23,265 nucleotides of DNA from Candidatus Phoenicimicrobium oleiphilum (GCA_039638295.1 JBDIWJ010000030.1:1-23265); one strand, 5' to 3'. Shown: positions 3,228 through 23,265, numbered from the stretch's first letter. The notes: generated by a model from the sequence alone, not told the origin. Made by a program: numbers and translations.

Positions 3228-3228
3228 G

Positions 3229-4008: not shown

Positions 4009-4018
4009 GAGGAAAAAT

Positions 4019-5254: not shown

Positions 5255-5634
5255 TGCTTACTGTACAGAATTATGTAAATGGTTTAAAAGATAATAAGAT
5301 TTTGGGGACTAAATGCAAAAATTGTGGCAATATAATGATTCCCTTGAAACCTGTTTGTTCCAAATGTGGAAGTTTTGATGTTGAAGAGTTTGAAACAAAA
5401 GGCAAGGGAGTTATAAGGAGTTTTACTGTAATTTATGTGGCACCCGAAAAATTTAAAGATAAAGTTCCTTATGTAGTTGCTATTATTAACCTCGATGAAG
5501 GTGGGGCAATTATGGGTAGATTAACCGGAGTGGACCCAAATAAACCGGAAAATATTAAAGTTGGTACAAAAGTTAAATTTGAGGCTTTGGTAGAAGGTGA
5601 AGAAGTAGTTGTAGTATTTAGAGTTGATAACTAA
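5251..5634 (+). CDS. DUF35-family Zn-ribbon/OB-fold protein (thiolase accessory subunit)
   Basis: CKNCG-x10-CSKCGS zinc ribbon, then an OB fold (GKGVIRSFTVIY, PYVVAIINLDEG, IKVGTKV). ATGA overlap with the thiolase stop. Confidence 0.92.
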   Translation: MMLTVQNYVNGLKDNKILGTKCKNCGNIMIPLKPVCSKCGSFDVEEFETKGKGVIRSFTVIYVAPEKFKDKVPYVVAIINLDEGGAIMGRLTGVDPNKPENIKVGTKVKFEALVEGEEVVVVFRVDN

Positions 5635-5952
5635 ATACAAAATATATTTTAGGAAATTAGCAAGGTAAAATTGTTTTAAGTTACAAAAAAAGAGACTTTT
5701 TAAGATGTAAAATTGTGTTTTGGATTGAAAGTAAATCACGCAGAAGGGGGTGAGAATAAGAAATAAACAAAGTAATCTCTCAGTCTAAAAGTTAACGCAA
5801 GTTCTAATGAATAGCATAGAAAATTAAAAAAAATAAGGTAGGCTTTTAGAGAATTTTAAAATAGAGGAGTTGATACAAAAATAAAGTAGTTATAAGATAA
5901 AGATTTCAGAGTTTTTTAAAAAATACTATTATAAAACTTAGGAGGTAAAAAA

Positions 5953-6726
5953 ATGAGTAAAATTGTATTAATTGATTTAAGCGTGCCAATTGAACACGAT
6001 TCTTCATCTGAGCCGTGGCCAGCAAAGTTTAGCTATTTAGATCATAGAACAGGTGCTGTTGAAATGGGGGGTAAGCTTGGAGTAGCGCAGAAAGATTTTG
6101 TTTTTTCTAATGGCTTAGGTTGGTCGTATGAAGAGATAACTATGATAACCCATTGTGGGACCCATTTAGATGCGCCATGGCATTTTCATCCCATAGCAGA
6201 AGGTAAACTGGCAAAAACAATTGATGAAGTGCCTTTGGAATGGTGTTATTCGGATGGTGTGGTTTTGGATTTACGACATAAGAAACCAAGAGAAGAAATT
6301 TCTGTTGAAGATATAAAAATAGCTTTAGAAAAAATTAATTATACACTTAAACCTTTAGATATTGTTCTTATTATGACTGAGTGTGATAAGAAATTGGGGT
6401 CTCCAGAATATTTTGAGCAACCTGGAATGGGAAGAGAATCTACTTTATGGATACTTAAACATGGAGTAAAGGTAATAGGTGTAGATATGTATGGTTATGA
6501 CAGGGCGTTTAAGGATATGGGCCACGATTATAAGGAAGCTGGAGACGGCAAAAAAATTTGGCCTGCACATTTTGCTGGAATAGAGAAAGAATATTGTCAT
6601 ATTGAAAAATTGGCTAATCTTGATAAAATTCCAATTCCTTTTGGTTTTAAAGTAGCGGTTTTCCCAATAAAACTTATTAAAGCGAGTGCAGCTTGGGTTA
6701 GACCAGTAGCTATTATTGAAGAATAA
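5953..6726 (+). CDS. Cyclase-family metal-dependent hydrolase (kynurenine formamidase KynB-like)
   Basis: DLSVPI start, signature HCGTHLDAPWH (HxGTHxDxPxH), GVKVIGVD, HIEKLANLD, FPIKL..ASAAWVRPVAI; AGGAGG RBS. Confidence 0.9.
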   Translation: MSKIVLIDLSVPIEHDSSSEPWPAKFSYLDHRTGAVEMGGKLGVAQKDFVFSNGLGWSYEEITMITHCGTHLDAPWHFHPIAEGKLAKTIDEVPLEWCYSDGVVLDLRHKKPREEISVEDIKIALEKINYTLKPLDIVLIMTECDKKLGSPEYFEQPGMGRESTLWILKHGVKVIGVDMYGYDRAFKDMGHDYKEAGDGKKIWPAHFAGIEKEYCHIEKLANLDKIPIPFGFKVAVFPIKLIKASAAWVRPVAIIEE

Positions 6727-6755
6727 ATAAAAAAATAAAAAAAGGAGTGATAATT

Positions 6756-8732: not shown

Positions 8733-8733
8733 A

Positions 8734-10002
8734 ATGGAAAAAGTTGAAATAGAAATTTTAGAAAATTGCAATTTAATTCCGCCGTATTTTACAAATGAAA
8801 AATGGGTTCCCCATCTTAATTTTTCCGAAGAAATTCGTTCCAAAATGGATATTCCAAAAAAAATTATTATTCACGATGTGACTCTTCGTGATGGTGAACA
8901 AACGGCGGGAATTGTTTTTACTGAGGATGAAAAAGTATTTATTGCACAGGAACTTGATAGAATTGGTATTCCATTAATTGAAGTGGGAACTCCTGCGGTT
9001 TCAGATGATGATAAGAGAGTTTTTAGAAGACTTTCTGAAATGAATCTTAGGGCTAAAACTCTTGCTCTTTCAAGGGTAATAGAGAAAGATGTGGAGTTAG
9101 CGATCGAAAATAAAGCTGACGGAATTTTTTTAGAAACGAGCATAAACCCCTATTTTCTTAAACATGTAGTGGGGTGGGATGTTAATGAATTAATTAAAAG
9201 AGCTATAAGGTGTACAAAACTTGCAAAAAAGGCAGGGTTGTTTGTCGAATTCTGTGGATGGGAAACCTTTAGGGTTAGCAATCTTGATGTTATTAAAAGA
9301 GTCTTCTCTGAGATTGTAGATAAGGTAGAAGTTGATCAAATAGGAATTTCCGATACATTTGGCCAAGCACATCCATTGGTTGTACAATTTCTAGTTAAAA
9401 AGATGAAAGAATGGGTTCCTGATGTTCCTTTATCTTTTCATATTCATAATGATTTTGGCTTAGCAACTGGTTCGGTTATGATGGCAGTCGTTTCAGGGGT
9501 TGATGCGGTAGAATGTGCTTTTAATGGCCTAGGGGAAAGAGCAGGGAATGTTGCCACTGAAGAAGTAATTGCTTCGTTAGAATTACTCATGAATATAGAT
9601 ACAGGAATAAATTTAAAGGAAATATACAGGGTTTCTAAACTGGTAGAAGAAATTTCTAAATTAAAAGTTGCGAGGACAAAGTCTATTATAGGGGATGGGA
9701 TTTTCGATTGTGAATCTGGAATAGTTGTAGATGCTAATATTAAGTTGGAGAAAAAATTAGGATTAAAGGATAGTTTTTTCCCATATTCTCCTTCAGTATT
9801 TGGTAGGAAATCTAAATATGTAGGCGGGAAAAAGAGCGGTAAAGCTTTTGTGAAAAATATCCTTATAGAAAAAGGACTTAGCGCTACAGATGAGCAGATA
9901 ACAAAAATTTTAGAAAAAGTTAAGAGCAGAGGCATAATCCTTAAAAATATTCTTTCTGATCAAGAGCTTGATATGATTGTGGAAGAAGAGATATCAAGCT
10001 AG
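8734..10002 (+). CDS. DRE-TIM metallo-enzyme, homocitrate/2-isopropylmalate synthase-like, without the LeuA regulatory domain
   Basis: DVTLRDGEQ, IEVGTP, ISDTFG, FHIHNDFGLA, NGLGERAGN, GKKSG. At 422 aa it lacks the C-terminal allosteric domain. Starts 1 nt after the symporter stop. Confidence 0.88.
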   Translation: MEKVEIEILENCNLIPPYFTNEKWVPHLNFSEEIRSKMDIPKKIIIHDVTLRDGEQTAGIVFTEDEKVFIAQELDRIGIPLIEVGTPAVSDDDKRVFRRLSEMNLRAKTLALSRVIEKDVELAIENKADGIFLETSINPYFLKHVVGWDVNELIKRAIRCTKLAKKAGLFVEFCGWETFRVSNLDVIKRVFSEIVDKVEVDQIGISDTFGQAHPLVVQFLVKKMKEWVPDVPLSFHIHNDFGLATGSVMMAVVSGVDAVECAFNGLGERAGNVATEEVIASLELLMNIDTGINLKEIYRVSKLVEEISKLKVARTKSIIGDGIFDCESGIVVDANIKLEKKLGLKDSFFPYSPSVFGRKSKYVGGKKSGKAFVKNILIEKGLSATDEQITKILEKVKSRGIILKNILSDQELDMIVEEEISS

Positions 10003-10509: not shown

Positions 10510-12156
10510 TTAAGATTTTAATAAATTTTTTAGCGTTTCTGCTGAGAAGAAATAGTACGGGAATTCTCTAAAAGTATAGACCTTAGATTGTTTCATCTTT
10601 TCATCCTCATCTTCTAACTTTTTGTTTAGCTTACCCTTCAAAGGTCTCATTTTTTCTCCAATAAAATTATTTATAGCTTTAATCTCTTCAGAAATTTCCC
10701 ATTTTTCGATAGGTGAAGAAATTTCCCTAATTTTTTTAATCAATCGGGCTTTTTTCGCTGCCATCTTTCTAATAAGATTTTTTTCTTCTTTGGTTAAAGA
10801 CAATTCATCAACATATCTTTCGGGATTAAATTCCAAATCCCTTATCTTCTTCTTTAGGTCAGATATTTTAGAATTAGGCGCGTCAGAGGAAGATTTAAGA
10901 TGAAGATATAAAGTGCAGGAAACAACCAAAAAGTGAGGAGGTTCCACCTTAAAAAATTCTCTGATAATTTCATCAGTTACCAGGTCATATTTTGCTCCTC
11001 CCAATCCGTGAATGAAAAGGTCAGAAATAAATAGTCGATTGTATAGAGTTAACAAAAGAGCTTTGGGTCTTATCTTTAAGTCCCGTTCTTTGAGGAGGGT
11101 TTTAAATGAAGATAGAGATTTTAAACTGTCTTCTTCTACAAGAAATATTTTCCCATAAGAATTATTATAAAGATAATTTCCTCCTCCCTTTCTTAAAATA
11201 AAAATTTTTCTCCTCTGGTCTTGCTCTCTCCAGATCCAGAAAGGGGCTTCGATAAGGTTTTCTTTAATGGTTAAATTAAGCGAGGGGTGTGCTTGATTTC
11301 TAATTTTAAATAACTTTCTGTATTCATCTAATTTATTATTATAAATTTCAGAAAAGGATTCGATGTTTTTAATAATATGCAAAAAGAAGGAGAGAAATTC
11401 ATCGCTATCGCAAATTTTCGAAAAAGGAATTTCCAGATAGGTTGGATGAATTTCTTGCTCGTAAAGACGGCGAGCTAAGCCAAGAAATTCTCCCAGATTG
11501 GCTTTTGGATAATTTTGGCTACATAGGTGGAAAGAATCTTCCAGACATTGAGAAAATATTTGAAAATTATTTAAAATTTCTTTATTTTCTGATTCTAATA
11601 GTTTAAGCCTATAGGTGGTATCCTGAATAAATTTGGTGGTAACTTCCTGAGGAGGGTAGGGATATTCTTCAAATGGGAGATGGGAAGCAAATTCCGAGGG
11701 GAAGAAATTTATTTTCTTTAATCTTAAATTTCTTTCTGAAGAAAGAGCAGGCAATAAAAAGTTAAGGTCTTTACAGATATCATTGTCCAGAATGATATTT
11801 AATCCTAAACATTTATCCGGCAAAGGAGATTTTAGAAGTTCATTTAAAAATATATTTTTAATCCATACTCCAGGATGAAAAAATACTGGTTGATGGCCAG
11901 TCTGGATAATATATTGGAAAGAGGAATTAATTTTTTCTTCAATATGGGGGTCAAATTTAGAACTAAACTTTAATGCCCTTTGAAGAACTTCTTTTCGGTT
12001 TTTTTCCCTAACTTCCTTGAAAGGCTGGTTAAGAAGTTTAAAGGAATACTGGCTAAAAATTTTCTTATTCTCTTCTAATAGGGAGGGTATCTCTTCTGTT
12101 GAATAAGAGAGTAAAATCTGCCTATTTTGCGGAACTTTAATATTTATTTTTTTCAT
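10510..12156 (-). CDS. Uncharacterised protein, distantly BshC-like (HUP/Rossmann-type ligase fold plus C-terminal coiled coil)
   Basis: 548-aa ORF with GAGGTG RBS. Motifs IIQTGHQPVFFHPGVWIKN, ILDND, EAPFWIW, IRPKALLLTLYNRL, LFIHGLGGAKYD, and a K/E-rich helical C-terminus. The layout parallels BshC (TGQQ motif, SEDHD, coiled coil); the function assignment is inference. Confidence 0.55.
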   Translation of the reverse strand: MKKINIKVPQNRQILLSYSTEEIPSLLEENKKIFSQYSFKLLNQPFKEVREKNRKEVLQRALKFSSKFDPHIEEKINSSFQYIIQTGHQPVFFHPGVWIKNIFLNELLKSPLPDKCLGLNIILDNDICKDLNFLLPALSSERNLRLKKINFFPSEFASHLPFEEYPYPPQEVTTKFIQDTTYRLKLLESENKEILNNFQIFSQCLEDSFHLCSQNYPKANLGEFLGLARRLYEQEIHPTYLEIPFSKICDSDEFLSFFLHIIKNIESFSEIYNNKLDEYRKLFKIRNQAHPSLNLTIKENLIEAPFWIWREQDQRRKIFILRKGGGNYLYNNSYGKIFLVEEDSLKSLSSFKTLLKERDLKIRPKALLLTLYNRLFISDLFIHGLGGAKYDLVTDEIIREFFKVEPPHFLVVSCTLYLHLKSSSDAPNSKISDLKKKIRDLEFNPERYVDELSLTKEEKNLIRKMAAKKARLIKKIREISSPIEKWEISEEIKAINNFIGEKMRPLKGKLNKKLEDEDEKMKQSKVYTFREFPYYFFSAETLKNLLKS

Positions 12157-12179: not shown

Positions 12180-12587
12180 CTAAATATCTATCTCTTTCTT
12201 TTTGACCCACAATCCTGCTCTCTCCAAAACTTTCTGTACACCACCAGGGCTGATTACTTTTTTATTATTGTTTTCTTTTACAATTACTGAAGCTATAGTC
12301 CGGCGTCCCCAATTAGGATTTTTTTTCTTTAGTTCAATTATCCTAAGGGCATATTTTTCTGGGACTCTCCCCGGATTTTTTCTTATACGTTTTTTTGGCT
12401 CTCTTATCCCTCCTATGCCTTGTTCTAAATAGCGAGGATACCATCTACGAAAAGTATTTATAGATATTTTTGCTTTTCTACAAGAGAAACTTATATTATG
12501 TGTCTTTTGATAAGTTTCTATCATTAGTTTTCGCTGGGTAAAAGTGGTAGGTTTAATATATCTTTTGACTTTTCTTTCTTCTTTCAT
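12180..12587 (-). CDS. Helix-turn-helix protein resembling the N-terminal DNA-binding region of IS481/IS3-like transposases; no DDE domain
   Basis: ISFSCRKAKISINTFRRWYPRYLEQGIGGI (HTH 1) and IIELKKKNPNWGRRTIA...ISPGGVQKVLERAGL (HTH 2), then a stop. ATG at 12587 has GAGAGG about 7 nt upstream; the alternative start is 12605. Confidence 0.7.
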   Translation of the reverse strand: MKEERKVKRYIKPTTFTQRKLMIETYQKTHNISFSCRKAKISINTFRRWYPRYLEQGIGGIREPKKRIRKNPGRVPEKYALRIIELKKKNPNWGRRTIASVIVKENNNKKVISPGGVQKVLERAGLWVKKKEIDI

Positions 12588-12697
12588 CTTTTGACCTCTC
12601 ACCATTTATCTTAAGCTTTATTCTGTAAGTAGTCAATATCTGCGTGACCAGATAATAAAAAATATTTATTAAAAAAGAAGGATTTTTGAAATTTATA

Positions 12698-12730: not shown

Positions 12731-12747
12731 TTTCCGTAATATGGAAA
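12731..12747. promoter_or_regulatory. Putative IclR-family operator overlapping the iclR start codon
   Basis: Imperfect palindrome TTTCCGTAATATGGAAA (TTTCC-N7-GGAAA). Its right part AATATGGAAAA recurs as AATATAGAAAA at 12708-12718, 30 bp upstream. Confidence 0.55.
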
Positions 12748-13508
12748 AACAAACGGGCAAAAAAGAGAGAATAAAATCTATAGATAAAGCCTTGGATTTA
12801 TTAGAATTTCTTTCAGTTAATGAGCAAGAAACAGGCATAACTGAAATAAGTAAAAAGTTGCATATGGGGCTAAGTACAGTGCATAGAATAATAACTACCT
12901 TAAAATCTCGCGGGTATGTTATTCAGAATCAACAAACAACGAAGTATAGATTAGGAATTAAGTTATTTGCGCTTGGTTGTGCAGTCCAAAGTACAAAACG
13001 TTTGGTCGAGATAACAAAACCCTATCTTAGACAGTTATCGCAAGTTACTAATGAGACAGCAAATCTAGCAATTTTGGAGGGTAAGGAAGTCATTTATCTT
13101 GATACAATTGAGAGCCCAGAAATTTTGAGGACGGAGATTATGGCAGGGACTAGAACTCCAGCCCATTGTACTGCTTTAGGGAAGGTCTTATTAGCTTTTA
13201 TTTCTGATGGGGAATTTGAAAGTTTATATAAAAATGACGAACCATTAACTTCCCTTACGTCTAATTCAATAGCTTCATTAGAGGAATTAAAAAAACATTT
13301 AAAAAAGGTTAAAGAACAGGGTTATGCGCTTGATAGAGAAGAATATAAAATTGGTATTAATTGTATAGGTGTCCCTATATTTGGTAGAAATGAAGCTATA
13401 GCTGCTATTAGTATCACTGGTCCAGCATCACGTTTTACTTTAGATAAGATGGAAAAAGTTAAGGATGAATTAATAACTATATCTAAAAAAATTTCTAATC
13501 AGTTTTAG
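12741..13508 (+). CDS. IclR-family transcriptional regulator
   Basis: IKSIDKALDLLEFL, HTH GITEISKKLHMGLSTVHRIITTL..RGYV, ETANLAIL, PAHCTALGKVLLA, GYALDREE..GINCIGVPI, AAISITGP. Confidence 0.96.
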   Translation: MEKQTGKKERIKSIDKALDLLEFLSVNEQETGITEISKKLHMGLSTVHRIITTLKSRGYVIQNQQTTKYRLGIKLFALGCAVQSTKRLVEITKPYLRQLSQVTNETANLAILEGKEVIYLDTIESPEILRTEIMAGTRTPAHCTALGKVLLAFISDGEFESLYKNDEPLTSLTSNSIASLEELKKHLKKVKEQGYALDREEYKIGINCIGVPIFGRNEAIAAISITGPASRFTLDKMEKVKDELITISKKISNQF

Positions 13509-13546
13509 ATATATAAAAATATATTATAGAAAGGAAGGATTAAAAG

Positions 13547-14401
13547 ATGAATAAAAAGAAGACCCGCTTAGATTTCATAGAAATGAAAAAGAAAGGAGAA
13601 CAAGTAGCTTGGGTAACTGCTTATGATTTTCCCACTGCCTCATTTGTTGAGCAAGCCGGTATGGATATGATCTTAGTCGGTGATTCATTAGGGATGGTAG
13701 TATTAGGTTATCAAGGTACAGTCCCAGTTACTATGGAAAACTGTATCTCTCATTGCCAGGCAGTTCGGAGAGGTGCACCGAATACTTTCTGTATCGGGGA
13801 TATGCCCTTTCTGTCCTATCAGATTTCCGACCAGGAAGCAGTGAGAAATGCAGGACGTTTTTTGAAAGAGGCGGATATGGATGCAGTAAAATTAGAAGGA
13901 GGAAGGAGAGTCTGTAGCAGAATAAAGGCTATAGCTGATGCCGGAATATTAGTTATGGGGCATATTGGTCTTACTCCCCAAAGTTCAGGTCAATTAGGTG
14001 GATTTAAAGCTCAAGGTAGAGATGCTGCTAGTGCACGAGAATTAATTAAGGATGCTTTGGCCATTCAAGAAGCTGGTGCTTATGCCCTCTTGTTAGAAGC
14101 AGTTCCACCAGAATTAACCGTATTTATTACTAAAAAATTGTCTATACCCGTCTACTCTATTGGAGCAGGGGGACCCTGTGATGGCCAGTTATTAATATGT
14201 GGCGATATGTTAGGCCTCTTCCAGGCCTTTACCCCTAAGTTTGTTAAGAAATATGCTAATATCGCCGAAATAGAAACCAATGCCTTTAAGGAATATATCA
14301 AAGATGTAAAGACCGGAGCCTTCCCTACAGATGATCACTGCTATCATATTTTAAAAGGCAAAGAAGAAGAGTTTTATGAGATGCTGAAAGAGTTTGAGTA
14401 A
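13547..14401 (+). CDS. panB: 3-methyl-2-oxobutanoate hydroxymethyltransferase (PanB) family enzyme
   Basis: VTAYDFPTA, LVGDSLGMV, GDMPFLSY, VKLEGG, MGHIGLTPQ, LLEAVP, SIGAG, DGQ, PKFVKKY. Confidence 0.93.
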   Translation: MNKKKTRLDFIEMKKKGEQVAWVTAYDFPTASFVEQAGMDMILVGDSLGMVVLGYQGTVPVTMENCISHCQAVRRGAPNTFCIGDMPFLSYQISDQEAVRNAGRFLKEADMDAVKLEGGRRVCSRIKAIADAGILVMGHIGLTPQSSGQLGGFKAQGRDAASARELIKDALAIQEAGAYALLLEAVPPELTVFITKKLSIPVYSIGAGGPCDGQLLICGDMLGLFQAFTPKFVKKYANIAEIETNAFKEYIKDVKTGAFPTDDHCYHILKGKEEEFYEMLKEFE

Positions 14402-14437
14402 ATCTTTAATATTTAAAGAAACAAAGGAGCAAATACA

Positions 14438-15388
14438 ATGAGTAAAACGATAAAAGAAATTAGAGAATTTATGGAGGGGATGGGGATTCCTGGAAGAGAT
14501 TTGGGTGAACTTCCTTCTTCAACAAAAACCTTTCCAGATGGCGCACAATGGAGAATAGAAATTTCGGGGGTCGAGCACCCATCAACTTTTGAAGCAATGA
14601 TTGACGAAGCAAAAAAAAGGAATGTACCCATTCATAGAGCCATAATAACAGTAGCAGGATCAACTTTAAGTGATTTTAGTGAATTGAAGGCTATGGCTCA
14701 AATGGGAAAAGATGAAAAGATAGAGGTTATAGCTACAATGGGTCCACGTAAAGCTTGGGACGTAGGGGCAAAGGCCGCAGCTTTTTCTGAAGGTGCTATG
14801 GTAGGGTTTAGGCTAAGAGGCTCTGATAACATTTCTTATTGGCTGGCAGATATGATGAGAAATATTGAAGCTGGGCTCAGAGGATTTCTGGTGCTTGACG
14901 AAGGAATACTTTCTATTGTGACTCGCATGCGTGAAAAGGGTTTTATACCTAAAGATGTAGTCTTTAAATGGTCTGCATTTGGTGGATACTGCAGTGCTGC
15001 CGGAGCTAAGGTTATTGAGAAGATGGGTGCTAATTCAATTAATCCTACATCAGATGTTTCGCTCCCAATTTTGGCAGGAATGCGAAAAGCGATTAATATA
15101 CCAATAGATATTTATATGTTTATTACAGATGCTGAAGGGGGGATGTTTAGGGTCTATGAAGCTCCGGAAATCGCCAGGGTTACCTCACCTTGTTACTTTA
15201 AAATTGAACCGGGAACTAGCCAGGCTGATATTTATAAACCCTGGGTGAAAGAGAGTTGGCATGCAGAATTTATGAGAGAGAAAGTCAAAGAAGCTGCCAT
15301 TTTTCAAGAGATTATGGAAAGACAAGCACCTAAATTAAAATTATCTAAGAAGGGTCCTTCTGATTTAATTCTCCCAGATCCTAAATAA
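14438..15388 (+). CDS. Uncharacterised TIM-barrel protein (often labelled peptidase U32-like)
   Basis: FPDGAQWRIEISGVE, VPIHR, GPRKAWD, GLRGFLVLDEG, FKWS, GANSINP..D, IPIDIY, EAPEIAR..SPCYFK. Family recognition is from memory, and the Fe-S Cys cluster of UbiU/TrhP-type U32 proteins is not evident. Confidence 0.55.
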   Translation: MSKTIKEIREFMEGMGIPGRDLGELPSSTKTFPDGAQWRIEISGVEHPSTFEAMIDEAKKRNVPIHRAIITVAGSTLSDFSELKAMAQMGKDEKIEVIATMGPRKAWDVGAKAAAFSEGAMVGFRLRGSDNISYWLADMMRNIEAGLRGFLVLDEGILSIVTRMREKGFIPKDVVFKWSAFGGYCSAAGAKVIEKMGANSINPTSDVSLPILAGMRKAINIPIDIYMFITDAEGGMFRVYEAPEIARVTSPCYFKIEPGTSQADIYKPWVKESWHAEFMREKVKEAAIFQEIMERQAPKLKLSKKGPSDLILPDPK

Positions 15389-15424
15389 ACTAATGGAACA
15401 AGCAATAAGAGGAGGAAAAAAATA

Positions 15425-16660
15425 ATGAAAAACGATCCATTTGAAACAGCTTTAAATACCTTGCGCGCTGCAGGGAAAATTGCAGGCTTGGAGCCCAATG
15501 CAATTAAAATTCTTAGTCAACCTAAACGTGTTTTTGAATTTATCATTCCTATGAAAATGGATAATGGTGAACTTAGGATATTTAATGCTTTTAGAGTTCA
15601 TTATAATGATGCCTTAGGAGAAATTAAGGACGGGACAAGATTTGTACCCAATTTAGATTTAAATACTGTAAAAGCTTTAGGATTTTGGATGACCATCAAA
15701 CACGCTGTTGCTGGTATTCCTGCTGGCGGAGGGAAAGGCGGTGTAAGAGTTGATCCTTCTGAGTTAAGTGAATGGGAATTAGAACGCCTTGTTCGTGCTT
15801 TTATTCGCAAGTTACCTATGAAGGGAGCGTGGGTTGATGTGCCAGGAGCAGATATTGGAACTAGTGCAAAAACACAGGCCTGGATGCTTGACGAGTATGA
15901 AGAAATAGTTGGATTTCATAGCCCTGCAGCAATTAATGACAAGCCAGCCGAAGTCAATGGTACTTTAGGTAGTATGGAGGCAACCGGAACTGGTGCATTT
16001 TTTGTTACTAAGGAAGTGGTGAAAGATATAGGATTAGCTAAAAGCCCATCAGTAGTTGTTCAGGGATTTGGAGATGTTGGACGTACTGTGGCGAGATTAC
16101 TTTATAATGATGGGTTTAAAGTCATAGCAGTAAGTGATATTAAAGGCGGGGTACATTCAGAGGAAGGAATTAATATAGAAGAACTTGCAAAATATGTTGA
16201 AGATACCGGATTTGTTGCAGGCTTTCCAGGAACAGTAGAAATAACTAATAAAGAGTTATTAGAAACGAAGTGTGATATTTTAATCCCTGCTGCGGTTCAA
16301 AGTGTTATTACTGATGAAAACGCAGATAAGATAAAAGCACAATTAATCATTGAAGGAGCAAATGGTCCAACTACCCCAGGAGCTGAAAAGATACTCGAAG
16401 AAAAAGGAATTACAATTATTCCTGATGTATTAGCTAACTGTGGTGGTGCTATTGTGTGTAGTTTTGAACGTACTCAAGGGTTAACTGATACTTACTGGGA
16501 TTTAGAAACTGTTAATAAAAAGCTTAAAGAAAGAATTTTAAAAGCCTATAAGGAAACCGTTACAACTGCAAGAGAAAAGAACATCTCCCTTAGAAATGCT
16601 GCCTGGGTTAATGCCTTGACCAAGATAAGCAAGGCAATGAAAGCCAGGGGATGGATATAA
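15425..16660 (+). CDS. Glu/Leu/Phe/Val dehydrogenase family protein; substrate probably not glutamate
   Basis: FRVHYN, MTIKHA, GGGKGG, DVPGADIGT, EATG, VVQGFGDVG, DILIPAA, IEGANGPTT, IIPDVLAN. Several substrate-pocket residues differ from the GDH consensus. Confidence 0.9.
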   Translation: MKNDPFETALNTLRAAGKIAGLEPNAIKILSQPKRVFEFIIPMKMDNGELRIFNAFRVHYNDALGEIKDGTRFVPNLDLNTVKALGFWMTIKHAVAGIPAGGGKGGVRVDPSELSEWELERLVRAFIRKLPMKGAWVDVPGADIGTSAKTQAWMLDEYEEIVGFHSPAAINDKPAEVNGTLGSMEATGTGAFFVTKEVVKDIGLAKSPSVVVQGFGDVGRTVARLLYNDGFKVIAVSDIKGGVHSEEGINIEELAKYVEDTGFVAGFPGTVEITNKELLETKCDILIPAAVQSVITDENADKIKAQLIIEGANGPTTPGAEKILEEKGITIIPDVLANCGGAIVCSFERTQGLTDTYWDLETVNKKLKERILKAYKETVTTAREKNISLRNAAWVNALTKISKAMKARGWI

Positions 16661-16763
16661 GAATTTGTAAAATGAATTCTTTTTTCAGATAAATTTTATT
16701 AGAAAGATATCTCGGCAGATACCTAAAAGATATTAGTAAGATAGATTATAGAGGGAATTTGTA

Positions 16764-17291
16764 GTGAAAATATCAAACTTTTTGGCAAAGACAAATATGG
16801 TGTTAGAGAAAATAGAGGAAGTTATCCTCTGTATAGGGGTTAGCGTGCTGGCTATAATTTTAATTGTCAATGTAGTAGCCAGAAAAGCAGGAACCTCGAT
16901 CTATTTTATCGATGAAATAGCTATGTTTTTAGTGATCTGGATAACCTTTATTGGCGTAAGTTATGCCTCGAGGAAGGCAAGGCATATCCGTATGGGGGCA
17001 ATATTTGACTTATCTTCGGTGAGGGTGCAAAAAATCATGATATTTGTAATTTCTACAATCAGTGCTATAGTCATGTTCTACCTGACCTATATTTCTGTTA
17101 ATTACGTATATACTACTTATCGTTGGCAACAAGTGGCCCCAGCTCTAAGAATGCCCTATTGGATTGGTATCGTAGTCGTTCCGGTGGGTTTCTTCCTGGC
17201 CGGAATACATTATGTTCGGACCATTGTGAAGAACATCCAGGTAAAAGAGGAGGTCTGGCTCTCTCCTGAACAAAAGAGCGAATATGAGTGA
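16764..17291 (+). CDS. TRAP transporter small permease (DctQ/TeaB-like)
   Basis: Four TM segments; NVVAR, DEIAMFLVIWITFIGVSYASRKARHIRM, PALRMPYW; GTG start after GAGGG. Confidence 0.92.
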   Translation: MKISNFLAKTNMVLEKIEEVILCIGVSVLAIILIVNVVARKAGTSIYFIDEIAMFLVIWITFIGVSYASRKARHIRMGAIFDLSSVRVQKIMIFVISTISAIVMFYLTYISVNYVYTTYRWQQVAPALRMPYWIGIVVVPVGFFLAGIHYVRTIVKNIQVKEEVWLSPEQKSEYE

Positions 17292-17316
17292 GGAAGGAGG
17301 TTAGAGAGGAGGAATT

Positions 17317-18600
17317 ATGTTACAATTGATGGGAGTGGTAGCGTTCACCTTGCTTTTTCTTGGTTTCCCCTTTATGGTGGTACTCCTTGCTACTTTTCTG
17401 TTAGTTAGTTTTTTCTTTTTTCCTGATCTTAATCTAAATATACTAATACAGCAAATATTGAGTGGGATTAAGCCACTTTCTCTGGTTTGTGTGCCTATGT
17501 TTATACTGGCGGCTAATATTATTACTTCCGGACAGGCTGCCAAGAGAATGATAAATATGGTAAAGGCTTTCCTGGGACATCTATTTGGGGGCCTGCCTAT
17601 AGTTACTAATGTTGCCTGTACTTTATTTGGGGCTGTATCTGGCTCCACGCAGGCAACTGTAGCTGCTATAGGGGGGACAATGCGCCCCATGCTCCTCGAG
17701 GCTGGTTATTCCAGCCCTTTTACCCTTGGTTTAATTATTAATTCCAGCGACATTGCTTTTCTTATTCCTCCCAGCATAGGTTTTATTGTATATGGAGTAG
17801 CAACGCAAACTTCTGTTGGAAAATTATTTCTTGCCGGTATTCTTCCCGGATTACTTGTTTGTGCTTTATTCTCAATCTTTTCCTATTTTTACTCCAAATT
17901 TTATAATATTGGGCTTTATCCCAAGGCTAGTTGGAAGGAAAGGAAGCAGGTTACCAAGGAAGGCATCTTGATAATTGGTTTTCCTATATTGATCCTTGGA
18001 GGGATCTATGGGGGGATATTCAGTCCTACGGAAGCAGCTGCTTCTTCTGTACTATATGCTTTAGTCTTAGAGGGACTGGTTTATAAAACATTAACATTTA
18101 AAAAACTCATAGATATTGCCCTGTCTACGGCAGTGGTCACTGCCGTGGTTTTCATATTGGTGGGAGCGGGGCAAGCCATATCCTGGCTTTTAAGTTATTC
18201 TGGAATATACAAACTAATCCTGCCACCTCTTTTTGGGGATGAACCTTCTGTCCTAAAGGTTATTATCATAATTAATATTGCTTATTTCATTGCTTGTATG
18301 TTTGTTGATCCCATTGTCGCTATTTATGTTCTAACTCCACTTTTTGCGCCCTATGTAGCTCAAGCAGGGATTGACAAAGTTTTTCTGGGAGTTTTAGTAA
18401 CAATGCAAGCAGCAATAGGTTCGGCTACTCCACCTTGTGGGTGTGATATTTTCACTGCCATGGTGATCTTTAAAAGACCTTATTTAGAAGTGATAAGGAT
18501 GACCTGGCCTTTTGTGCTTATTTTACTAGTAGCAGTGGCCATAGTAATCACTTTTCCTGAACTGGCTCTTTTTATACCAAGGAGCGCTTTAGGGGGCTAA
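17317..18600 (+). CDS. TRAP transporter large permease (DctM/TeaC-like)
   Basis: LVCVPMFILAANI, GHLFGGL, LFGAVSGSTQATVAAIG, LIPPSIGFIVYG, LFLAGILPG, GGIFSPTEAA, IGSATPP. Confidence 0.95.
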   Translation: MLQLMGVVAFTLLFLGFPFMVVLLATFLLVSFFFFPDLNLNILIQQILSGIKPLSLVCVPMFILAANIITSGQAAKRMINMVKAFLGHLFGGLPIVTNVACTLFGAVSGSTQATVAAIGGTMRPMLLEAGYSSPFTLGLIINSSDIAFLIPPSIGFIVYGVATQTSVGKLFLAGILPGLLVCALFSIFSYFYSKFYNIGLYPKASWKERKQVTKEGILIIGFPILILGGIYGGIFSPTEAAASSVLYALVLEGLVYKTLTFKKLIDIALSTAVVTAVVFILVGAGQAISWLLSYSGIYKLILPPLFGDEPSVLKVIIIINIAYFIACMFVDPIVAIYVLTPLFAPYVAQAGIDKVFLGVLVTMQAAIGSATPPCGCDIFTAMVIFKRPYLEVIRMTWPFVLILLVAVAIVITFPELALFIPRSALGG

Positions 18601-18691
18601 AAGTAAAGGAGATGATGCTTATGTAATGAAAATAAATGAGTAGATATATTTCTTGGATATTAATAAAATTAAACAAAAAGGAGGGATAAAT

Positions 18692-19744
18692 ATGAGAAAT
18701 TTCAGGTTGATTCTAATCTTAGGTTTAGTAATAGTGCTAATAGCTTTTGTCTTCCCCGTATTTGCTCAAGAAAAAACTGAGGTCTACAAATGGAAAATGA
18801 TCTCTGAAGAGGTGACGGGGGATCCCATGACGGTCTTTGCCGAGCGATTTGCTGATCTAGTAGAAAAAAAATCAAATGGGAGAATAGAAATCGAAGTCTT
18901 TCCCTATGGTACTCTTGGAGGAGAGAGGGATATAGTTGAGCTTGTTCAGATGGGAGAGATAGAATTGGGCAGTGTAGACTATGGATGGGTTGGAGGCTTT
19001 GTGCCTCAAGCTCAGGTCTTGGCTTTACAATATCTCTGGCCAAAAGAGAATACCGCTGAAGTTATGCATGAAGTTTGCCAGAATGGTCGGGCTATCCAAC
19101 TACTGGAAGAAGGTTTTAGAAATAGAGGTTTTCAGTTATTAGGTGTATGGAGTTCAGGTTGGATGAGGGTCACCTCTAATGTTCCCATCCATTCTCCGAA
19201 AGATGTTAAAGGACTTAAACACAGGGTAATGGCAAATCCTATCCTGGTAAAGGCTTACAATACCTATGGTTTTAATGCACAAAGCTTAGACTATGGCGAG
19301 ATCTATGGAGCTCTACAGACTGGATTGCTAGATTCACAGGTTCAGCCGATGTATGCCCACTTAAGTATGGGTTTCTATGAAGTTCAAGACTATATTACCA
19401 ACTTGTGGAATGAAGCATTTATGGTCACCCCAGTAGTTAATCGTGAACTTTTTGATAGCATACCTGAAGATCTACAGCAGATACTTATTGACTCCTGTGC
19501 GGAACTTATAGTACCAATGACTAACTGGTCTTTCCGAAACAACGAACTAATAGGGATGAAGATTAGGGAGGCCAAACCCACAATTACAATTTATGAGTTA
19601 AATGACGAAGAGATAGTGCCATTCAAAGAGCTGGCCTGGCAAGAAGGTGGCCCCGTCGATACTTACTTGAAAATTGGTGGTGAGGGCGCTAAGGAGATAC
19701 TTGATGCATTATTAAATGATATTAAGACTGCTCAAAGACAATAA
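18692..19744 (+). CDS. TRAP substrate-binding protein (DctP; TeaA/UehA ectoine-binding-like)
   Basis: Signal peptide MRNFRLILILGLVIVLIAFVFPVFA|QE. WKMISEE..G, FADLVEKKSNG, VFPYGTLG, DIVELVQMG, GLKHRVM, YGEIYGALQTG, FYEVQDY. ATG 18692 follows AGGAGG. Confidence 0.9.
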   Translation: MRNFRLILILGLVIVLIAFVFPVFAQEKTEVYKWKMISEEVTGDPMTVFAERFADLVEKKSNGRIEIEVFPYGTLGGERDIVELVQMGEIELGSVDYGWVGGFVPQAQVLALQYLWPKENTAEVMHEVCQNGRAIQLLEEGFRNRGFQLLGVWSSGWMRVTSNVPIHSPKDVKGLKHRVMANPILVKAYNTYGFNAQSLDYGEIYGALQTGLLDSQVQPMYAHLSMGFYEVQDYITNLWNEAFMVTPVVNRELFDSIPEDLQQILIDSCAELIVPMTNWSFRNNELIGMKIREAKPTITIYELNDEEIVPFKELAWQEGGPVDTYLKIGGEGAKEILDALLNDIKTAQRQ

Positions 19745-19768
19745 TATTTTTGGTTTACTGAATTTTAG

Positions 19769-19799
19769 CCTATAGCACAGGTAAAACCTGTGCTATAGG
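19769..19799. other. Perfect RNA stem-loop after dctP (mRNA-stabilising or partial termination element)
   Basis: CCTATAGCACAGGT-AAA-ACCTGTGCTATAGG: a 14-bp perfect stem with no U-tract on either strand. Confidence 0.7.
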
Positions 19800-19952
19800 T
19801 GGAAAGTTCCAGAACAAACAATCAATTAGAATAAAATTAACTAAGTTTACAGTCATTACCATACTACGATTGTCTGCACTGTCTTTTAATGAAAGCCAAA
19901 TGCAGCTCGCATAAGGTTTTTATTTATTTTTTAAGCAAGGAGAAATAATTAG

Positions 19953-21122
19953 ATGTTATATTTTTATATTAATGAATATAAAGATAGGATTAAAAAAACA
20001 AAAAAAAGAATGGAAGCAGAAGGTATTGATGTTTTATTTATTTCTCAACCAGCAAATATGAACTACCTTACTGGTTATGATGGATGGAGTTTTTACGTTC
20101 ATCAGGGTGTAATTGTATCATTAGACAAAGAAGAGCCAATTTGGGTCGGTAGAGCTATGGATGCTAACGGAGCTAAAATAACCACGTTTCTTAAAGATGA
20201 AGATATAAGAGGTTACCCTGATGATTATGTTCAATCAAAAACAAAACACCCGATGCAATTTGTTGCAGATATAATCAAGAAAAAAGGATGGGATAATAAG
20301 ACGATTGCCGTTGAAATGGATCAATTTTATTTTACCCATCGTTGTTATTTAGAATTAGAAAAAGCTCTGCCTAAAGCAAAATTTAAAGATGGTAACCTTT
20401 TAGTTAACATGGTAAGGATGATAAAATCTGAAAAAGAAATTGAGTTTATGAAAAGAGCAGGTAAAATTGCTGTAAAAGCAATGCAAGCGGGTATAGATTC
20501 TGTTAATGTCGGAGTAAGGGAATGTGATGCAGCAGCAAATATTTCTTATGCCCAGATAAAGGGTACTGAAGAATATGGTGGAGATTATCCGGCTATAGTG
20601 CCTTTGATGATGGCTGGCGAAGGAACAAGTACCCCTCATTTGACCTGGTCTGATAGAAAGTTTGAGAATAATGAAGCTGTTCTTTTAGAATTGTCTGGAG
20701 TGTATAAACATTATCATGCACCTATTGCAAGGACTATTTATCTTGGTACCCCGCCTAAAATAATGAGAGAGACTGCAGATGTTGTAACAAATGGATTGGC
20801 TAAAACACTGGAATTTATTAAACCAGGAGTTACCTGTGAAGAAGTAGAAGCAAAGTGGAGAGATGCTATTTCCCACTCAACTGTTGTTAAAGAATCACGT
20901 TTGGGGTATTCAATCGGCTTGAACTATCCGCCTGACTGGGGCGAACAAACCATAAGCCTGAGGCCTGGCGATAAAACTATTTTACAGCCAAATATGACCT
21001 TACACCTTATACCAGGCATTTGGTATAAAGAAGTTGGATTTGAAGTAGACGCATCGATAAGGATTACTAAAAAGGGATATGAATCGTTATACGATTTTCC
21101 CATGGAACTTTTTATTAAATAA
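19953..21122 (+). CDS. doeA: Ectoine hydrolase (DoeA/EutD; M24 pita-bread fold, creatinase-like)
   Basis: Subfamily-typical strings PANMNYLTGYDGWSFYVHQ, WVGRAMDANGA, GYPDDYVQS..HPM, GGDYPAIVP, PHLTW, GYSIGLNYPPDWGE. The canonical Xaa-Pro peptidase metal ligands are largely replaced (ELSG, HAP, GYS, HLIPG). Confidence 0.85.
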   Translation: MLYFYINEYKDRIKKTKKRMEAEGIDVLFISQPANMNYLTGYDGWSFYVHQGVIVSLDKEEPIWVGRAMDANGAKITTFLKDEDIRGYPDDYVQSKTKHPMQFVADIIKKKGWDNKTIAVEMDQFYFTHRCYLELEKALPKAKFKDGNLLVNMVRMIKSEKEIEFMKRAGKIAVKAMQAGIDSVNVGVRECDAAANISYAQIKGTEEYGGDYPAIVPLMMAGEGTSTPHLTWSDRKFENNEAVLLELSGVYKHYHAPIARTIYLGTPPKIMRETADVVTNGLAKTLEFIKPGVTCEEVEAKWRDAISHSTVVKESRLGYSIGLNYPPDWGEQTISLRPGDKTILQPNMTLHLIPGIWYKEVGFEVDASIRITKKGYESLYDFPMELFIK

Positions 21123-21160
21123 TATTCTATTTCGAAAAATTAAAGGAGGGGTAGAGGTAC

Positions 21161-21895
21161 ATGTTGTATAAAGCCAAAAAGGGACAAGCAAGTTATGGTG
21201 AGGCTATAGGAATTCTTTTATTGGATACATCCTTTGCCCCTTATGTTCCAGGTGACGTGGCTAATGCTACTTCTTATTCCTTTCCGGTAAGATTTAAAGT
21301 AGTAAATGGTCTTACTGTCGAAAGGATCTTTAATAAAGAGATTAAATTTTTAGATCGAGTAATTGAAGCTGGTAAGGAATTAATAGAACATGGAGTAAGA
21401 GCAATTACAGGCGATTGTGGATTCATGGCTTTATTCCAAAGAGAAGTGGCCAAACAATTAGAAGTTCCCGTATTTTTATCCAGTCTTCTTCAGTTACCTT
21501 TCCTGACAAGAATAATTGGTGAGGGACAAAAAGTTGGAATAATTACGGCAAATTCAAAGATACTTGATGATACTTTATTAAGAGAAGTGGGCATTAAAGA
21601 TATGAATTCTGTCTATATCAAAGGAGTGGAAGGTAAAGAATATTTTAGAAAAGCAATTATTGAAGAAGTTGGCTGGCTTGATTTCGAGAAGGTGGAAAAA
21701 GAAGTGGTGTCTGCAGCCAAGGAGATGACCAGAGAAGATCCTAAAATAAAAGTTATTTTATTAGAATGCAGCTGTCTGCCTCCCTATGGAGCGGCAGTTC
21801 AAGAGGCAATAAATCTTCCTGTTTTTGATTATATCACTATGATAAACTATGTCTATTCAGCCGTTGTTAAGAAGAATTTCAAAGGTTTTATGTAG
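21161..21895 (+). CDS. Aspartate/glutamate/hydantoin racemase-family protein
   Basis: GEAIGILLLD, PGDVANA.SYSFPV, two catalytic-type Cys motifs ITGDCGF and LLECSCLPPY, PVFLSSL, LPVFD. Confidence 0.85.
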   Translation: MLYKAKKGQASYGEAIGILLLDTSFAPYVPGDVANATSYSFPVRFKVVNGLTVERIFNKEIKFLDRVIEAGKELIEHGVRAITGDCGFMALFQREVAKQLEVPVFLSSLLQLPFLTRIIGEGQKVGIITANSKILDDTLLREVGIKDMNSVYIKGVEGKEYFRKAIIEEVGWLDFEKVEKEVVSAAKEMTREDPKIKVILLECSCLPPYGAAVQEAINLPVFDYITMINYVYSAVVKKNFKGFM

Positions 21896-21942
21896 CATTT
21901 AAAACGTAATTTTTTATTACGAAAGGATAATATAAAACCACT

Positions 21943-23121
21943 ATGAATATAAAAAAGAAAATAACAAGTCTAAAAGATGAATTAATTGAATTAAGAAGAG
22001 ATTTTCATAAGCATCCCGAGCTGGGATTTAAAGAATATAGGACTGCAGAAATTGTAGCAAATTATCTTGAAAAATGCGGATTGAAGGTAAAAAGAGGTAT
22101 TGCAAGAACAGGTGTTGTTGCTCTGCTTGAGGGAAATGCTCCGGGTCCTACTTTACTTTTACGTGCCGATATGGACGCCTTACCTATTCAAGAAGAAAAT
22201 GAGGTACCGTATAAATCGGTAAATAATGGAGTAATGCACGCTTGTGGTCATGATGCTCACACAGCTATGCTCTTAGTGGCTGCGAAAATTCTTTCTAATT
22301 ATAAGGAGAAAATAAAAGGGAATATTAAATTTGTTTTTCAGCCGAATGAAGAAGTTGGTGGGGCAAAAGTAATGGTAGAAGAAGGAGTTCTTGAAAATCC
22401 TCTGGTAGATGCGGCAATGGCTCTACATTTATGGACCCCGATAGAAAGTGGGAAGATTGGAGTTACAGCTGGTCCTATAACCGCAACTCTTGATGTCTTT
22501 AACCTTAAGATTAAAGGGAAAGGTGGGCATACAGGTTATCCGGAAAACGCAGTGGATCCAATTATTGCCGCTGCAAATATTATTCAGACTATCCAAACTA
22601 TACAGACAAGAGAAATAAGTGCGTTAAAGCCTACTATTATTATGTTTACTAAAATAAAAAGTGGAGTAAAATCTAATATTATACCTGATACAGTTAATTT
22701 AGGAGGGACAATAAGGTATTTTTATAAAGAGGGAGTGAAGGACGAAGAGAAAATAAATAAAAGATTTGAAAGAATAGTAGAAGCTATTTGTAGAGCTTAT
22801 AGAACGAAATATAAATTAAAATTTTATAATGAGAATCAGTCAGTCATTAATAATCTGAATATGACAAAATTAGTGATAACTATAGGTGAAGAATTACTAG
22901 GCAATGGTGACAAAATTATACCGTATGTATCCACTGCCGGTGAAGATTTTTCTGAGTTTGCCAATAAGGTTCCGAGTGTCTTCTATTTTGTTGGGGCTGG
23001 CAATATAGAAAAAGAATCCCATTACCCTCATCATAATCCGCGTTTTAATATCGATGAGGATGTAATGTTAATTGGAGTTGAAATGCATGTTCGCAGCGCA
23101 TTAGAATTTTTTAATAAATAG
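21943..23121 (+). CDS. M20D-family amidohydrolase (N-acyl-amino acid deacylase-like)
   Basis: RRDFHKHPELGFKE, LRADMDALP, MHACGHDAH, FQPNEE, GKGGH, GEDFS, HHNPRF. Confidence 0.93.
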   Translation: MNIKKKITSLKDELIELRRDFHKHPELGFKEYRTAEIVANYLEKCGLKVKRGIARTGVVALLEGNAPGPTLLLRADMDALPIQEENEVPYKSVNNGVMHACGHDAHTAMLLVAAKILSNYKEKIKGNIKFVFQPNEEVGGAKVMVEEGVLENPLVDAAMALHLWTPIESGKIGVTAGPITATLDVFNLKIKGKGGHTGYPENAVDPIIAAANIIQTIQTIQTREISALKPTIIMFTKIKSGVKSNIIPDTVNLGGTIRYFYKEGVKDEEKINKRFERIVEAICRAYRTKYKLKFYNENQSVINNLNMTKLVITIGEELLGNGDKIIPYVSTAGEDFSEFANKVPSVFYFVGAGNIEKESHYPHHNPRFNIDEDVMLIGVEMHVRSALEFFNK

Positions 23122-23184
23122 TAAATGAGTATTTTTAAGACAGAGTAAGATATATTAAAATAATAAAAATTAGGAGGAACTAAA

Positions 23185-23265
23185 ATGAAATCAGATCTAC
23201 AGATAGCCCAAGAAGCTAAACTAAAACCCATCACCGAAATCGCTGAATCGATCGGAATAAGAGAA
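23185..23265 (+). CDS. fhs: Formate--tetrahydrofolate ligase, N-terminal fragment (runs off the window)
   Basis: AGGAGG RBS, then MKSDLQIAQEAKLKPITEIAESIGIRE, which matches the characteristic Fhs N-terminus (xSDIEIAQxAxxKPIxEIAxxLGI). Only 27 codons are visible and it is not in the ORF track. Confidence 0.85.
   Translation, partial: MKSDLQIAQEAKLKPITEIAESIGIRE

Follow-up and report, generated by a model that had tools for sequence, protein, structure and literature searches.

A run of eleven genes in Candidatus Phoenicimicrobium oleiphilum (GCA_039638295.1) probably encodes the fermentation of ectoine, by way of 4-amino- and 4-hydroxy-2-oxobutanoate, to pyruvate and methylene-tetrahydrofolate (methylene-THF). 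It lies in JBDIWJ010000030.1:1-23265 (the window, 23,265 nt), which is the entire contig C30 of a 1.65-Mb genome that is 91% complete. The run occupies the + strand from 12741 to the contig end at 23265, with intergenic gaps of 25-208 bp, in the order iclR-panB-U32-like-gdh-like-dctQ-dctM-dctP-doeA-like-racemase-like-M20-fhs, the last represented by its 5' part (Table 1). All eleven genes are where the original prediction, made from the bare sequence, had placed them, and none of doeB, doeC, doeD, enuR or doeX is in the window, as it had also remarked. We think it very likely that this is a real catabolic cluster of the 2,4-diaminobutyrate (DABA)/ectoine type with a catabolic PanB. Its upper half resembles the Doe/Eut pathway but departs from it in several diagnostic scores and residues, and its lower half consists of a module that is conserved and apparently undescribed. 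The nearest loci of this genome in a homology search belong to Atribacterota, and most of the public runs that contain the stretch are metagenomes from oil fields or aquatic sites, several of them possible sources of it.

Related loci were found by searches with the U32-like protein, DoeA and the dehydrogenase, together with an evenly drawn sample of 401 Bacillota genomes, 33 of which carry the U32-like protein (39 of 44 listed places were fetched); the gene content of the loci was annotated and then tabulated by tblastn. The co-location of doeA with panB and a glutamate dehydrogenase (GDH)-family gene, proposed as a check in the original prediction, proved to be conserved: 26 further genomes (16 from one protein search, 5 added by another and 5 by the Bacillota sample) have panB, the U32-like gene, a gdh-clade gene and doeA at a single locus, 3 of them Atribacterota and 23 Bacillota. 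Isolates with the four-gene set include Alkaliphilus peptidifermentans, two Anoxynatronum and two Gudongella. One relative (L001) has the same gene order as the window, and the order of the four genes is shuffled from lineage to lineage. Partial sets occur in Chloroflexota (L004, L009, L022), Thermodesulfobacteriota (L010, L257) and Synergistota (L096). Within the Bacillota sample, the U32-like gene, gdh and doeA were found together at 7 of the 39 fetched places, 5 of these with panB, and among 86 Atribacterota genomes the U32-like profile matched in 17 (E<=0.001), 14 of them strongly, several belonging to a different clade. An IclR gene is present in 32 of the 53 loci of the dehydrogenase clade. 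In one Atribacterota cluster (L005:7028-9848), gdh is separated from doeA by an inserted pxpBCA (5-oxoprolinase-like) set and an APC permease gene.

The operon PanB exceeds the equivalog cut-off of its family (Table 1), keeps the catalytic residues D46, D85, K115, H139 and E184, and is encoded by the only panB in the genome. No match to PF02569 (panC) or PF02261 (panD) was found in this 91%-complete genome, with controls positive in 9 and 8 of 14 cases, respectively. The joint lack of panC, panD, EutE and DoeC-type genes in the genome argues that this PanB does not serve pantothenate synthesis. Of 32 genomes in which panB adjoins the U32-like gene, mostly incomplete metagenome-assembled genomes (MAGs), 20 lack panC; each of the other 12, which do have it, carries a second panB. 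In a quick IQ-TREE run, from which rows shorter than 240 aa and duplicates were excluded, the U32-like-linked PanBs form their own clade (support 98). Three residues, L182, L215 and I217, are kept in 52 of 54 PanB rows at no less than 60% identity; they read V, V or I, and V in eight panC-adjacent copies and two housekeeping candidates. Since shrinking I212 or V214 (Escherichia coli numbering) widens the substrate scope of the E. coli enzyme (PMC7610986), the bulkier residues would fit a smaller substrate. Sister or nested PanBs without a U32-like neighbour are found beside IlvD, a DtnK-like kinase, PdxA and fhs, or beside FMN/FAD 2-hydroxy-acid dehydrogenases and LarA. As 4-hydroxy-2-oxobutanoate would result both from dehydration of tetronate and from oxidation of 2,4-dihydroxybutyrate, we take this compound as the substrate of the clade, and propose that PanB acts as a 4-hydroxy-2-oxobutanoate:THF hydroxymethyltransferase yielding pyruvate and methylene-THF. 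The original prediction had assigned these products to PanB, which conservation, the absent panC and panD and the altered pocket support, but from a 4-amino or 4-acetamido substrate, in place of which the 4-hydroxy acid is favoured here. Several anaerobes (L168-L187; G102, G105, G111, G112, G116-G119 and others) carry up to 5-6 PanB paralogues, with IlvD, LarA, UxaA, a DtnK-like kinase plus PdxA, 2-hydroxy-acid dehydrogenases, TRAP genes and fhs as neighbours; these probably form a wider family of catabolic PanBs.

The GDH-like protein keeps the catalytic K92, K104 and D143 and the Rossmann motif. The pocket that binds the gamma-carboxylate of glutamate in canonical enzymes comprises, as we take it, K-G-G, A-P-D, T-G, an Arg and a Ser; the operon protein reads KDG, GAD, ND, S183 and C345 there. 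All 64 rows that share at least 55% identity show the altered pattern (D/N69, G141, N171, D172, C345 and no Arg at 183). The canonical one (G69, A141, T171, G172, R183) is shared by the two other GDHs of this genome and 20 of 21 more distant rows, the sole exception being a clade member at 49% identity. The loss of a positive charge and the gain of aspartates would make such a pocket suitable for an amine side chain, and we propose, from the pocket and the gene swaps described below, that the enzyme is a 2,4-diaminobutyrate 2-dehydrogenase (deaminating). This agrees with the C2 deamination postulated in the original prediction; as PanB substrates, both the 4-amino product and its 4-acetamido variant are less favoured than the 4-hydroxy acid.

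That 4-amino-2-oxobutanoate is the hub of the pathway is suggested by three gene swaps. In a Desulfobacula locus (L257), ordered iclR-panB-U32-like-aminotransferase class I/II-doeA-M20-TRAP-eutB, the aminotransferase occupies the position of gdh. In the second swap, EutB is accompanied by RidA in all seven gdh-clade loci that have EutB, and by EutC in none of the 53, while 11 of 28 doeA loci have EutB and EutC and no gdh-clade gene. EutB reportedly dehydrates hydroxy-DABA; if so, RidA would hydrolyse the resulting enamine to the same 2-oxo acid. A 2018 review places EutB on the ring itself (PMC5924519). In the third swap, the U32-like gene is present in 34 of the 53 gdh-clade loci and a 2-oxoacid:ferredoxin oxidoreductase in 11, never both; the other eight have neither. 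Eight of the 11 oxidoreductase loci carry a Kal-like ammonia lyase (beta-aminoacyl-CoA ammonia-lyase), and the acyl-CoA dehydrogenase of L113 scores best with acryloyl-CoA reductase. This branch fits a conversion of 4-amino-2-oxobutanoate to beta-alanyl-CoA and acryloyl-CoA; beta-alanyl-CoA, here the predicted product of oxidative decarboxylation, is a substrate of such lyases (PMC4619459). The sister cluster (L094, L104, L105, L108, L110 and L113, from Anaerotignum neopropionicum and Clostridium sp. MD294 among others) has the same dehydrogenase, M20, DoeA-like protein and TRAP transporter and adds the oxidoreductase and usually the Kal-like lyase, in some cases with an EutA-like gene and acyl-CoA dehydrogenase/electron-transfer flavoprotein genes. 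It is predicted to encode a DABA-to-propionate route, gut clostridia included.

The U32-like protein of the window matches no Pfam or NCBIfam family, PF01136 included, and no PDB sequence; its label comes from the ESM Atlas, which offered no functional lead beyond U32, and from weak PF01136 matches in 26 of 65 relatives (best E 5e-9). The family counts 2313 homologues. The confidently predicted structure (pLDDT 94.7) is a (beta/alpha)8 TIM barrel, and fold searches with it returned generic TIM barrels only, the best being CutC (Z 15.3) with many others within 1-2 Z. Residues R39, E41, D154, K177, S179, D206, D224 and K255 are invariant, the charged ones lying at strand ends. A FastTree phylogeny of 103 rows, from which rows shorter than 280 aa and duplicates were excluded, separated a 75-row clade holding every panB/gdh/doeA context from a second clade of 28 rows. 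No cysteine column exceeds 59% in either clade, and this absence of conserved cysteines led us to discard an Fe-S hydroxylase or protease role. The original prediction left this protein without a role. It is the tightest partner of panB and is also linked to gdh, and its presence where the amine must go and absence where the amine is kept suggest the amine-to-hydroxyl step as a bridge to PanB, a guess from co-occurrence that makes this the weakest step. Loci of the second clade (L226, L227, L232, L235-L238, L258-L266; Bacillota and Atribacterota) also carry TRAP genes, and an IolN there scores 563 bits, above its cut-off. In L223, panB and the U32-like gene follow a penicillin-amidase-family gene and an HpaB-family gene.

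As for the upper half, the closest solved relatives of DctP are TeaA and UehA (3gyy, 2vpn and 3fxb; E 5e-45 to 3e-42). Their ligand cage presumably consists of Glu, Arg, Asn, Trp, Trp and Phe; DctP keeps E52/E53, R191 and F256 of a TeaA-type cage and reads Y214, A235, Q231 and W112 at the TeaA Trp, Trp, Asn and Phe positions, so that the full cage is not present. The DoeA-like protein aligns with the Halomonas elongata DoeA structure (6twk, E 2e-109), including H229, E246, Y48 and R316; the active-site His, Glu, Tyr and Arg of DoeA reportedly take part in its reaction. It is identical to Sinorhizobium meliloti EutD in 28 of 31 chosen columns, and this strong homology suggests that it opens the ectoine ring. 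Its neighbours in a FastTree phylogeny (rows shorter than 340 aa and duplicates excluded) include spirochaete copies beside eutB and eutC. Spirochaetota loci L044-L050, L053 and L055 carry doeA-eutB-eutC, several with M20, Asd, a class III aminotransferase and a PPDK-like ATP-binding protein; these sets possibly represent another anaerobic ectoine route, via aspartate semialdehyde.

M20 genes (at least 42% identity) occur in 40 of the 53 dehydrogenase-clade loci, and neither this genome nor any of 30 related ones has an EutE (TIGR02994) match above the cut-off. Together these results make M20 the likely deacetylase, releasing acetate from N-acetyl-DABA. They support what the original prediction had proposed for M20, with the correction that its nearest ectoine-related profile is DoeB2, so that an M20-type DoeB function has precedent. 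The racemase-like protein carries GDCGF at 84 and LECSCLPP at 201; its gene (PRK07475) is found in 17 of 53 clade loci, and it probably lets the other enantiomer of an intermediate enter the pathway. The search for doeB, doeC and doeD elsewhere, also proposed at the outset, revealed no EutE or DoeC-type gene in the 91%-complete genome: for DoeC/Ssd, the genome, to which that search was confined, gave only a weak PF00171 match in one 414-aa ProA-sized frame. No class III aminotransferase (DoeD/Atf) is linked; unlinked ArgD and GabT-like genes are present. In the cluster, to which the search for EnuR was confined, neither EnuR nor DoeX was found, the regulator there being IclR.

Only the first 27 codons of fhs are in the window. 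Fhs of L001 scores 713 against a cut-off of 652; fhs follows M20 in L001, L002 and L059, and fhs or folD adjoins the cluster in L001, L062, L065, L080 and L081, representing two lineages. Contigs C30 and C64 end in the same 99 bp over the fhs start, the C64 copy lying behind purB/purA/guaA-like open reading frames, and two near-identical fhs copies probably broke the assembly at these ends. Relatives G086 and G087 have two fhs starts each, and the duplicate starts in the three genomes (this one being G000) favour an operon-linked second copy. In L059 the order is M20-fhs-gcvH-gcvP-gcvT, with which contig C33 of this genome is colinear. Reading fhs as only a part of that glycine-cleavage cluster was considered and is disfavoured: C33 begins in a repeat, which leaves its join to the operon unsupported, and the duplicate starts favour the operon-linked copy. 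Given the glycine-cleavage genes behind fhs in L059, glycine or purine metabolism might be a further outlet for the C1 unit. The folD gene, which the original prediction suggested seeking downstream of the window, is instead on contig C45.

In the pathway proposed, the transporter (TRAP by family, its ligand presumed) would import ectoine, and DoeA would open the ring to N-acetyl-DABA, which M20 would convert to acetate and DABA. Oxidative deamination at C2 by the GDH-fold enzyme would give 4-amino-2-oxobutanoate, NH4+ and NAD(P)H. The U32-like protein might then exchange the C4 amine for a hydroxyl, probably via 2-oxo-3-butenoate, and the resulting 4-hydroxy-2-oxobutanoate would be cleaved by the PanB paralogue, through reverse hydroxymethyl transfer, to pyruvate and 5,10-methylene-THF. 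FolD and the operon Fhs would turn the C1 unit into formate and ATP, and pyruvate would yield acetate and CO2. By arithmetic, ectoine would thus give 2 acetate, formate, CO2, 2 NH4+ and 3 electron pairs, with at most 2 ATP at substrate level. The pathway as first conceived is largely supported by linkage, gene absences, pockets and gene swaps, while its chemistry has been refined in the U32-like step, the 4-hydroxy substrate and the transporter ligand. More widely, strict anaerobes of several phyla may ferment ectoine and hydroxyectoine via 4-amino-2-oxobutanoate, made by the DABA 2-dehydrogenase or by EutB plus RidA, with two mutually exclusive discharges: a U32-fold lyase/hydratase with a catabolic PanB (C4 to THF, ATP via Fhs), or oxidative decarboxylation to beta-alanyl-CoA and propionate. 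We judge this generalisation evenly balanced between right and wrong.

Several observations weigh against ectoine fermentation by this route. The DoeA-like and M20 proteins score below the TIGR02993 and DoeB2 cut-offs (Table 1; the S. meliloti EutD control reaches 838.9 bits in TIGR02993), and the Kal-like lyase gives 115 bits against a cut-off of 160 (NF052388). Both genes for a discharge through FolD and Fhs, as first predicted, are in this genome. Of the 53 loci, only 5 have either gene within reach (fhs in 4, folD in 2, both in L080). The second U32-like clade (28 of 103 rows) adjoins fumarate hydratase, malic enzyme, Ldh_2, IolN and PrpD, and within the family there are copies beside sugar-acid genes (L007, L008, L241) or beside panB with no recognised amino-acid or sugar-acid catabolic genes (L223, L224, L225, L229, L234, L270), contexts that a pure deaminase fits poorly. 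No doeA is seen in 25 of the 53 gdh-clade loci (10 of 35 among loci of at least 12 kb), which indicates that the lower module also serves sources other than ectoine. Finally, because window proteins served to find the loci and many of the genomes are MAGs related to one another, all counts given here show recurrence rather than independent trials. The DctP proteins of the whole clade lack the TeaA Trp (A235), which Arcobacter and Desulfobacula copies keep, and a pocket unlike that of TeaA means that the imported molecule may be other than ectoine. The same lower pathway might then start from an ectoine homologue, from ring-opened N-acetyl-DABA, or from DABA derived from peptides or cell walls, with DoeA interconverting or opening these compounds. 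We regard this as unlikely, though not negligible: the pocket has extra acidic and aromatic residues, several loci have two DoeA paralogues, the Desulfobacula genome encodes a TeaA-like TRAP in addition to one of the window type, and some gdh-clade loci without doeA carry peptide ABC or alanine-symporter genes (L083, L090, L097). Against it, the DoeA active-site columns are almost identical to those of EutD, EutB-like genes are frequent nearby (400-411 bits, cut-off 413), and many carriers bear soda-lake or halophile genus names, such habitats being where ectoine is expected.

The remaining alternatives concern the lower half. PanB might cleave 4-amino- (or 4-acetamido-) 2-oxobutanoate directly, by a retro-Mannich reaction onto THF, leaving the U32-like protein for 2-oxo-3-butenoate damage control, lactam/lactone handling or a partnership with PanB. 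This would accommodate the panB-U32-like pairs that occur without amino-acid genes, and an acetamido route would save the gamma isomer, since DoeA yields both acetyl isomers 2:1 (PMC5924519). It nevertheless seems improbable to us, for some members of the same PanB clade, identical in pocket pattern, occur without a U32-like gene in sugar-acid or hydroxy-acid clusters (L173, L178, L181, L182, L184), where the substrate is hardly an amine, and the U32-like gene is absent from all 11 oxidoreductase loci, where the amine is kept. A slimmer chance is that DABA goes to aspartate semialdehyde via unlinked GabT-like, Asd or homoserine dehydrogenase enzymes, the GDH-like protein acting on homoserine to supply PanB or on another amino acid. 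The GabT-like gene (contig C5; 492 bits, cut-off 507 for TIGR00700) and Asd (C21) could route DABA in this way, another point against C2 deamination, and deamination of homoserine gives 4-hydroxy-2-oxobutanoate directly (bioRxiv 2025.02.17.638773, for the reverse reaction); a class III aminotransferase is, however, present in only 1 of 53 clade loci, and the dehydrogenase has the same pocket pattern in the ammonia-lyase branch, where the C4 amine is required. A chance assembly of a pantothenate panB, a glutamate gdh and unrelated neighbours is barely credible: the equivalog score and intact catalytic residues of PanB would agree with it, but the lack of panC and panD, the two canonical GDHs elsewhere and a linkage kept in shuffled order across phyla largely refute it.

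Ectoine is an abundant osmolyte, and its described degraders use the aspartate route. If true, its fermentation would supply a missing part of the carbon and nitrogen cycles of anoxic saline sediments, soda lakes, oil reservoirs and guts. Three new enzyme activities would come with it: a DABA 2-dehydrogenase, the first role in small-molecule chemistry for the large, unannotated U32-like family, and a natural PanB linking pyruvate and methylene-THF through 4-hydroxy-2-oxobutanoate, a reaction for which synthetic C1-assimilation cycles now use promiscuous aldolases. The panB and gdh annotations of many anaerobe genomes would then probably be wrong.

Table 1. Genes of the eleven-gene run, with window coordinates and the matches supporting each name
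Feature	Position	Strand	Basis
IclR-family regulator, probable local regulator	12741..13508	+	Pfam PF09339+PF01614
Catabolic PanB paralogue (proposed)	13547..14401	+	TIGR00222 325.6 bits, cut-off 207.55
U32-like TIM-barrel protein, 316 aa	14438..15388	+	Fold, ESM Atlas, weak PF01136 in relatives
GDH-fold amino-acid dehydrogenase	15425..16660	+	PF00208+PF02812; below every GDH equivalog cut-off
TRAP small permease DctQ	16764..17291	+	PF04290
TRAP large permease DctM	17317..18600	+	TIGR00786 above cut-off
TRAP binding protein DctP, TeaA/UehA lineage, rearranged pocket	18653..19744	+	PDB matches 3gyy/2vpn/3fxb
DoeA/EutD-like M24 hydrolase	19953..21122	+	TIGR02993 475.9 bits (cut-off 613); 6twk E 2e-109
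Two-cysteine Asp/Glu-racemase-family protein (PRK07475)	21161..21895	+	NF005679 299 bits, cut-off 231
M20D amidohydrolase	21943..23121	+	TIGR01891 377 bits, above cut-off; DoeB2 279 bits (cut-off 550)
Formate-tetrahydrofolate ligase (fhs), 5' end	23185..23265	+	NF010030/PF01268 match on 27 aa

Elsewhere in the window, a separate co-directional run (2253-10002) encodes a thiolase, an OB-fold partner, a cyclase-family protein, a homocitrate/isopropylmalate-synthase-like enzyme, a CoA-transferase alpha/beta-like pair (recognised by inspection; no NCBIfam match at 1e-20) and a sodium:solute symporter with C-terminal winged-helix domains. It is followed on the minus strand by a 548-aa protein with no Pfam or NCBIfam match (10510-12156) and a small helix-turn-helix protein resembling the N-terminus of IS481 (12180-12605), both also present upstream of the operon in L001. 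A promoter and terminator scan was uninformative (33 promoter-like sites against 35.2 in shuffles, and 9 terminator-like sites against 7.2). RNA coverage from three RNA runs, viewed beside one DNA run, was flat over the operon, intergenic DNA and unrelated genes; with DNA carry-over possible, it gives no sign of expression.

Full-text literature searches, which did not extend to figures, supplements or subscription papers, returned no description of anaerobic ectoine fermentation, a DABA 2-dehydrogenase or a catabolic PanB. With the Doe/Eut systems (H. elongata doeABCD, S. meliloti ehuABCD-eutABCDE, Ruegeria pomeroyi uehABC-eut; PMC5924519), the cluster shares a DoeA/EutD-like hydrolase, a TRAP transporter of the TeaA/UehA lineage, DABA as its presumed intermediate and, in relatives, EutB-like genes. 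Unlike them, the window has no EutE, DoeC or linked DoeD and an IclR in place of EnuR/DoeX; DABA would apparently be deaminated at C2 rather than transaminated at C4, and the pathway would end in pyruvate and C1-THF, not aspartate. Putative eutD clusters of Bacillota and Thermodesulfobacteriota (PMC13188858, 2026) also have EutD without eutE, often two eutD genes, M20/AbgB and TRAP. That study describes eutBCD-atf and abgB-thrA-adh, and its main text contains no occurrence of 'panB', 'anaerob' or 'Atribacter'; its gene maps may include members of this cluster among the grey unassigned genes.

The ammonia-lyase chemistry of beta-alanine fermentation in Clostridium (Anaerotignum) propionicum and of Kal in lysine fermentation matches that of the sister branch, which is not in the window (PMC4619459); C. 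propionicum forms beta-alanyl-CoA with a CoA transferase, whereas the sister branch would do so by oxidative decarboxylation of 4-amino-2-oxobutanoate. The U32-like protein shares with the U32 family (RlhA, TrhP, UbiU/V; Mk0906) the TIM barrel, weak PF01136 matches in relatives and a structural match (5d88, Z 13.8) that does not stand above other barrels, but has no conserved cysteines for an Fe-S cluster. E. coli ketopantoate hydroxymethyltransferase (PanB) has the same fold and catalytic residues and acts with formaldehyde as a class II aldolase on many 2-oxo acids, variants at I202, I212 and V214 widening its scope (PMC7610986, PMC7611260). The window PanB differs from it in the absence of panC/panD, in its separate clade and in the bulkier L182, L215 and I217, and is proposed to be catabolic, acting on a 3-unsubstituted substrate. 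The synthetic homoserine cycle, which combines a 4-hydroxy-2-oxobutanoate aldolase and transaminase, is built on the same interconversion of pyruvate plus C1 and 4-hydroxy-2-oxobutanoate, there called non-native (bioRxiv 10.1101/2025.02.17.638773); that cycle is engineered, uses free formaldehyde and assimilates carbon, whereas the operon described here is proposed to carry out a natural, THF-coupled cleavage.

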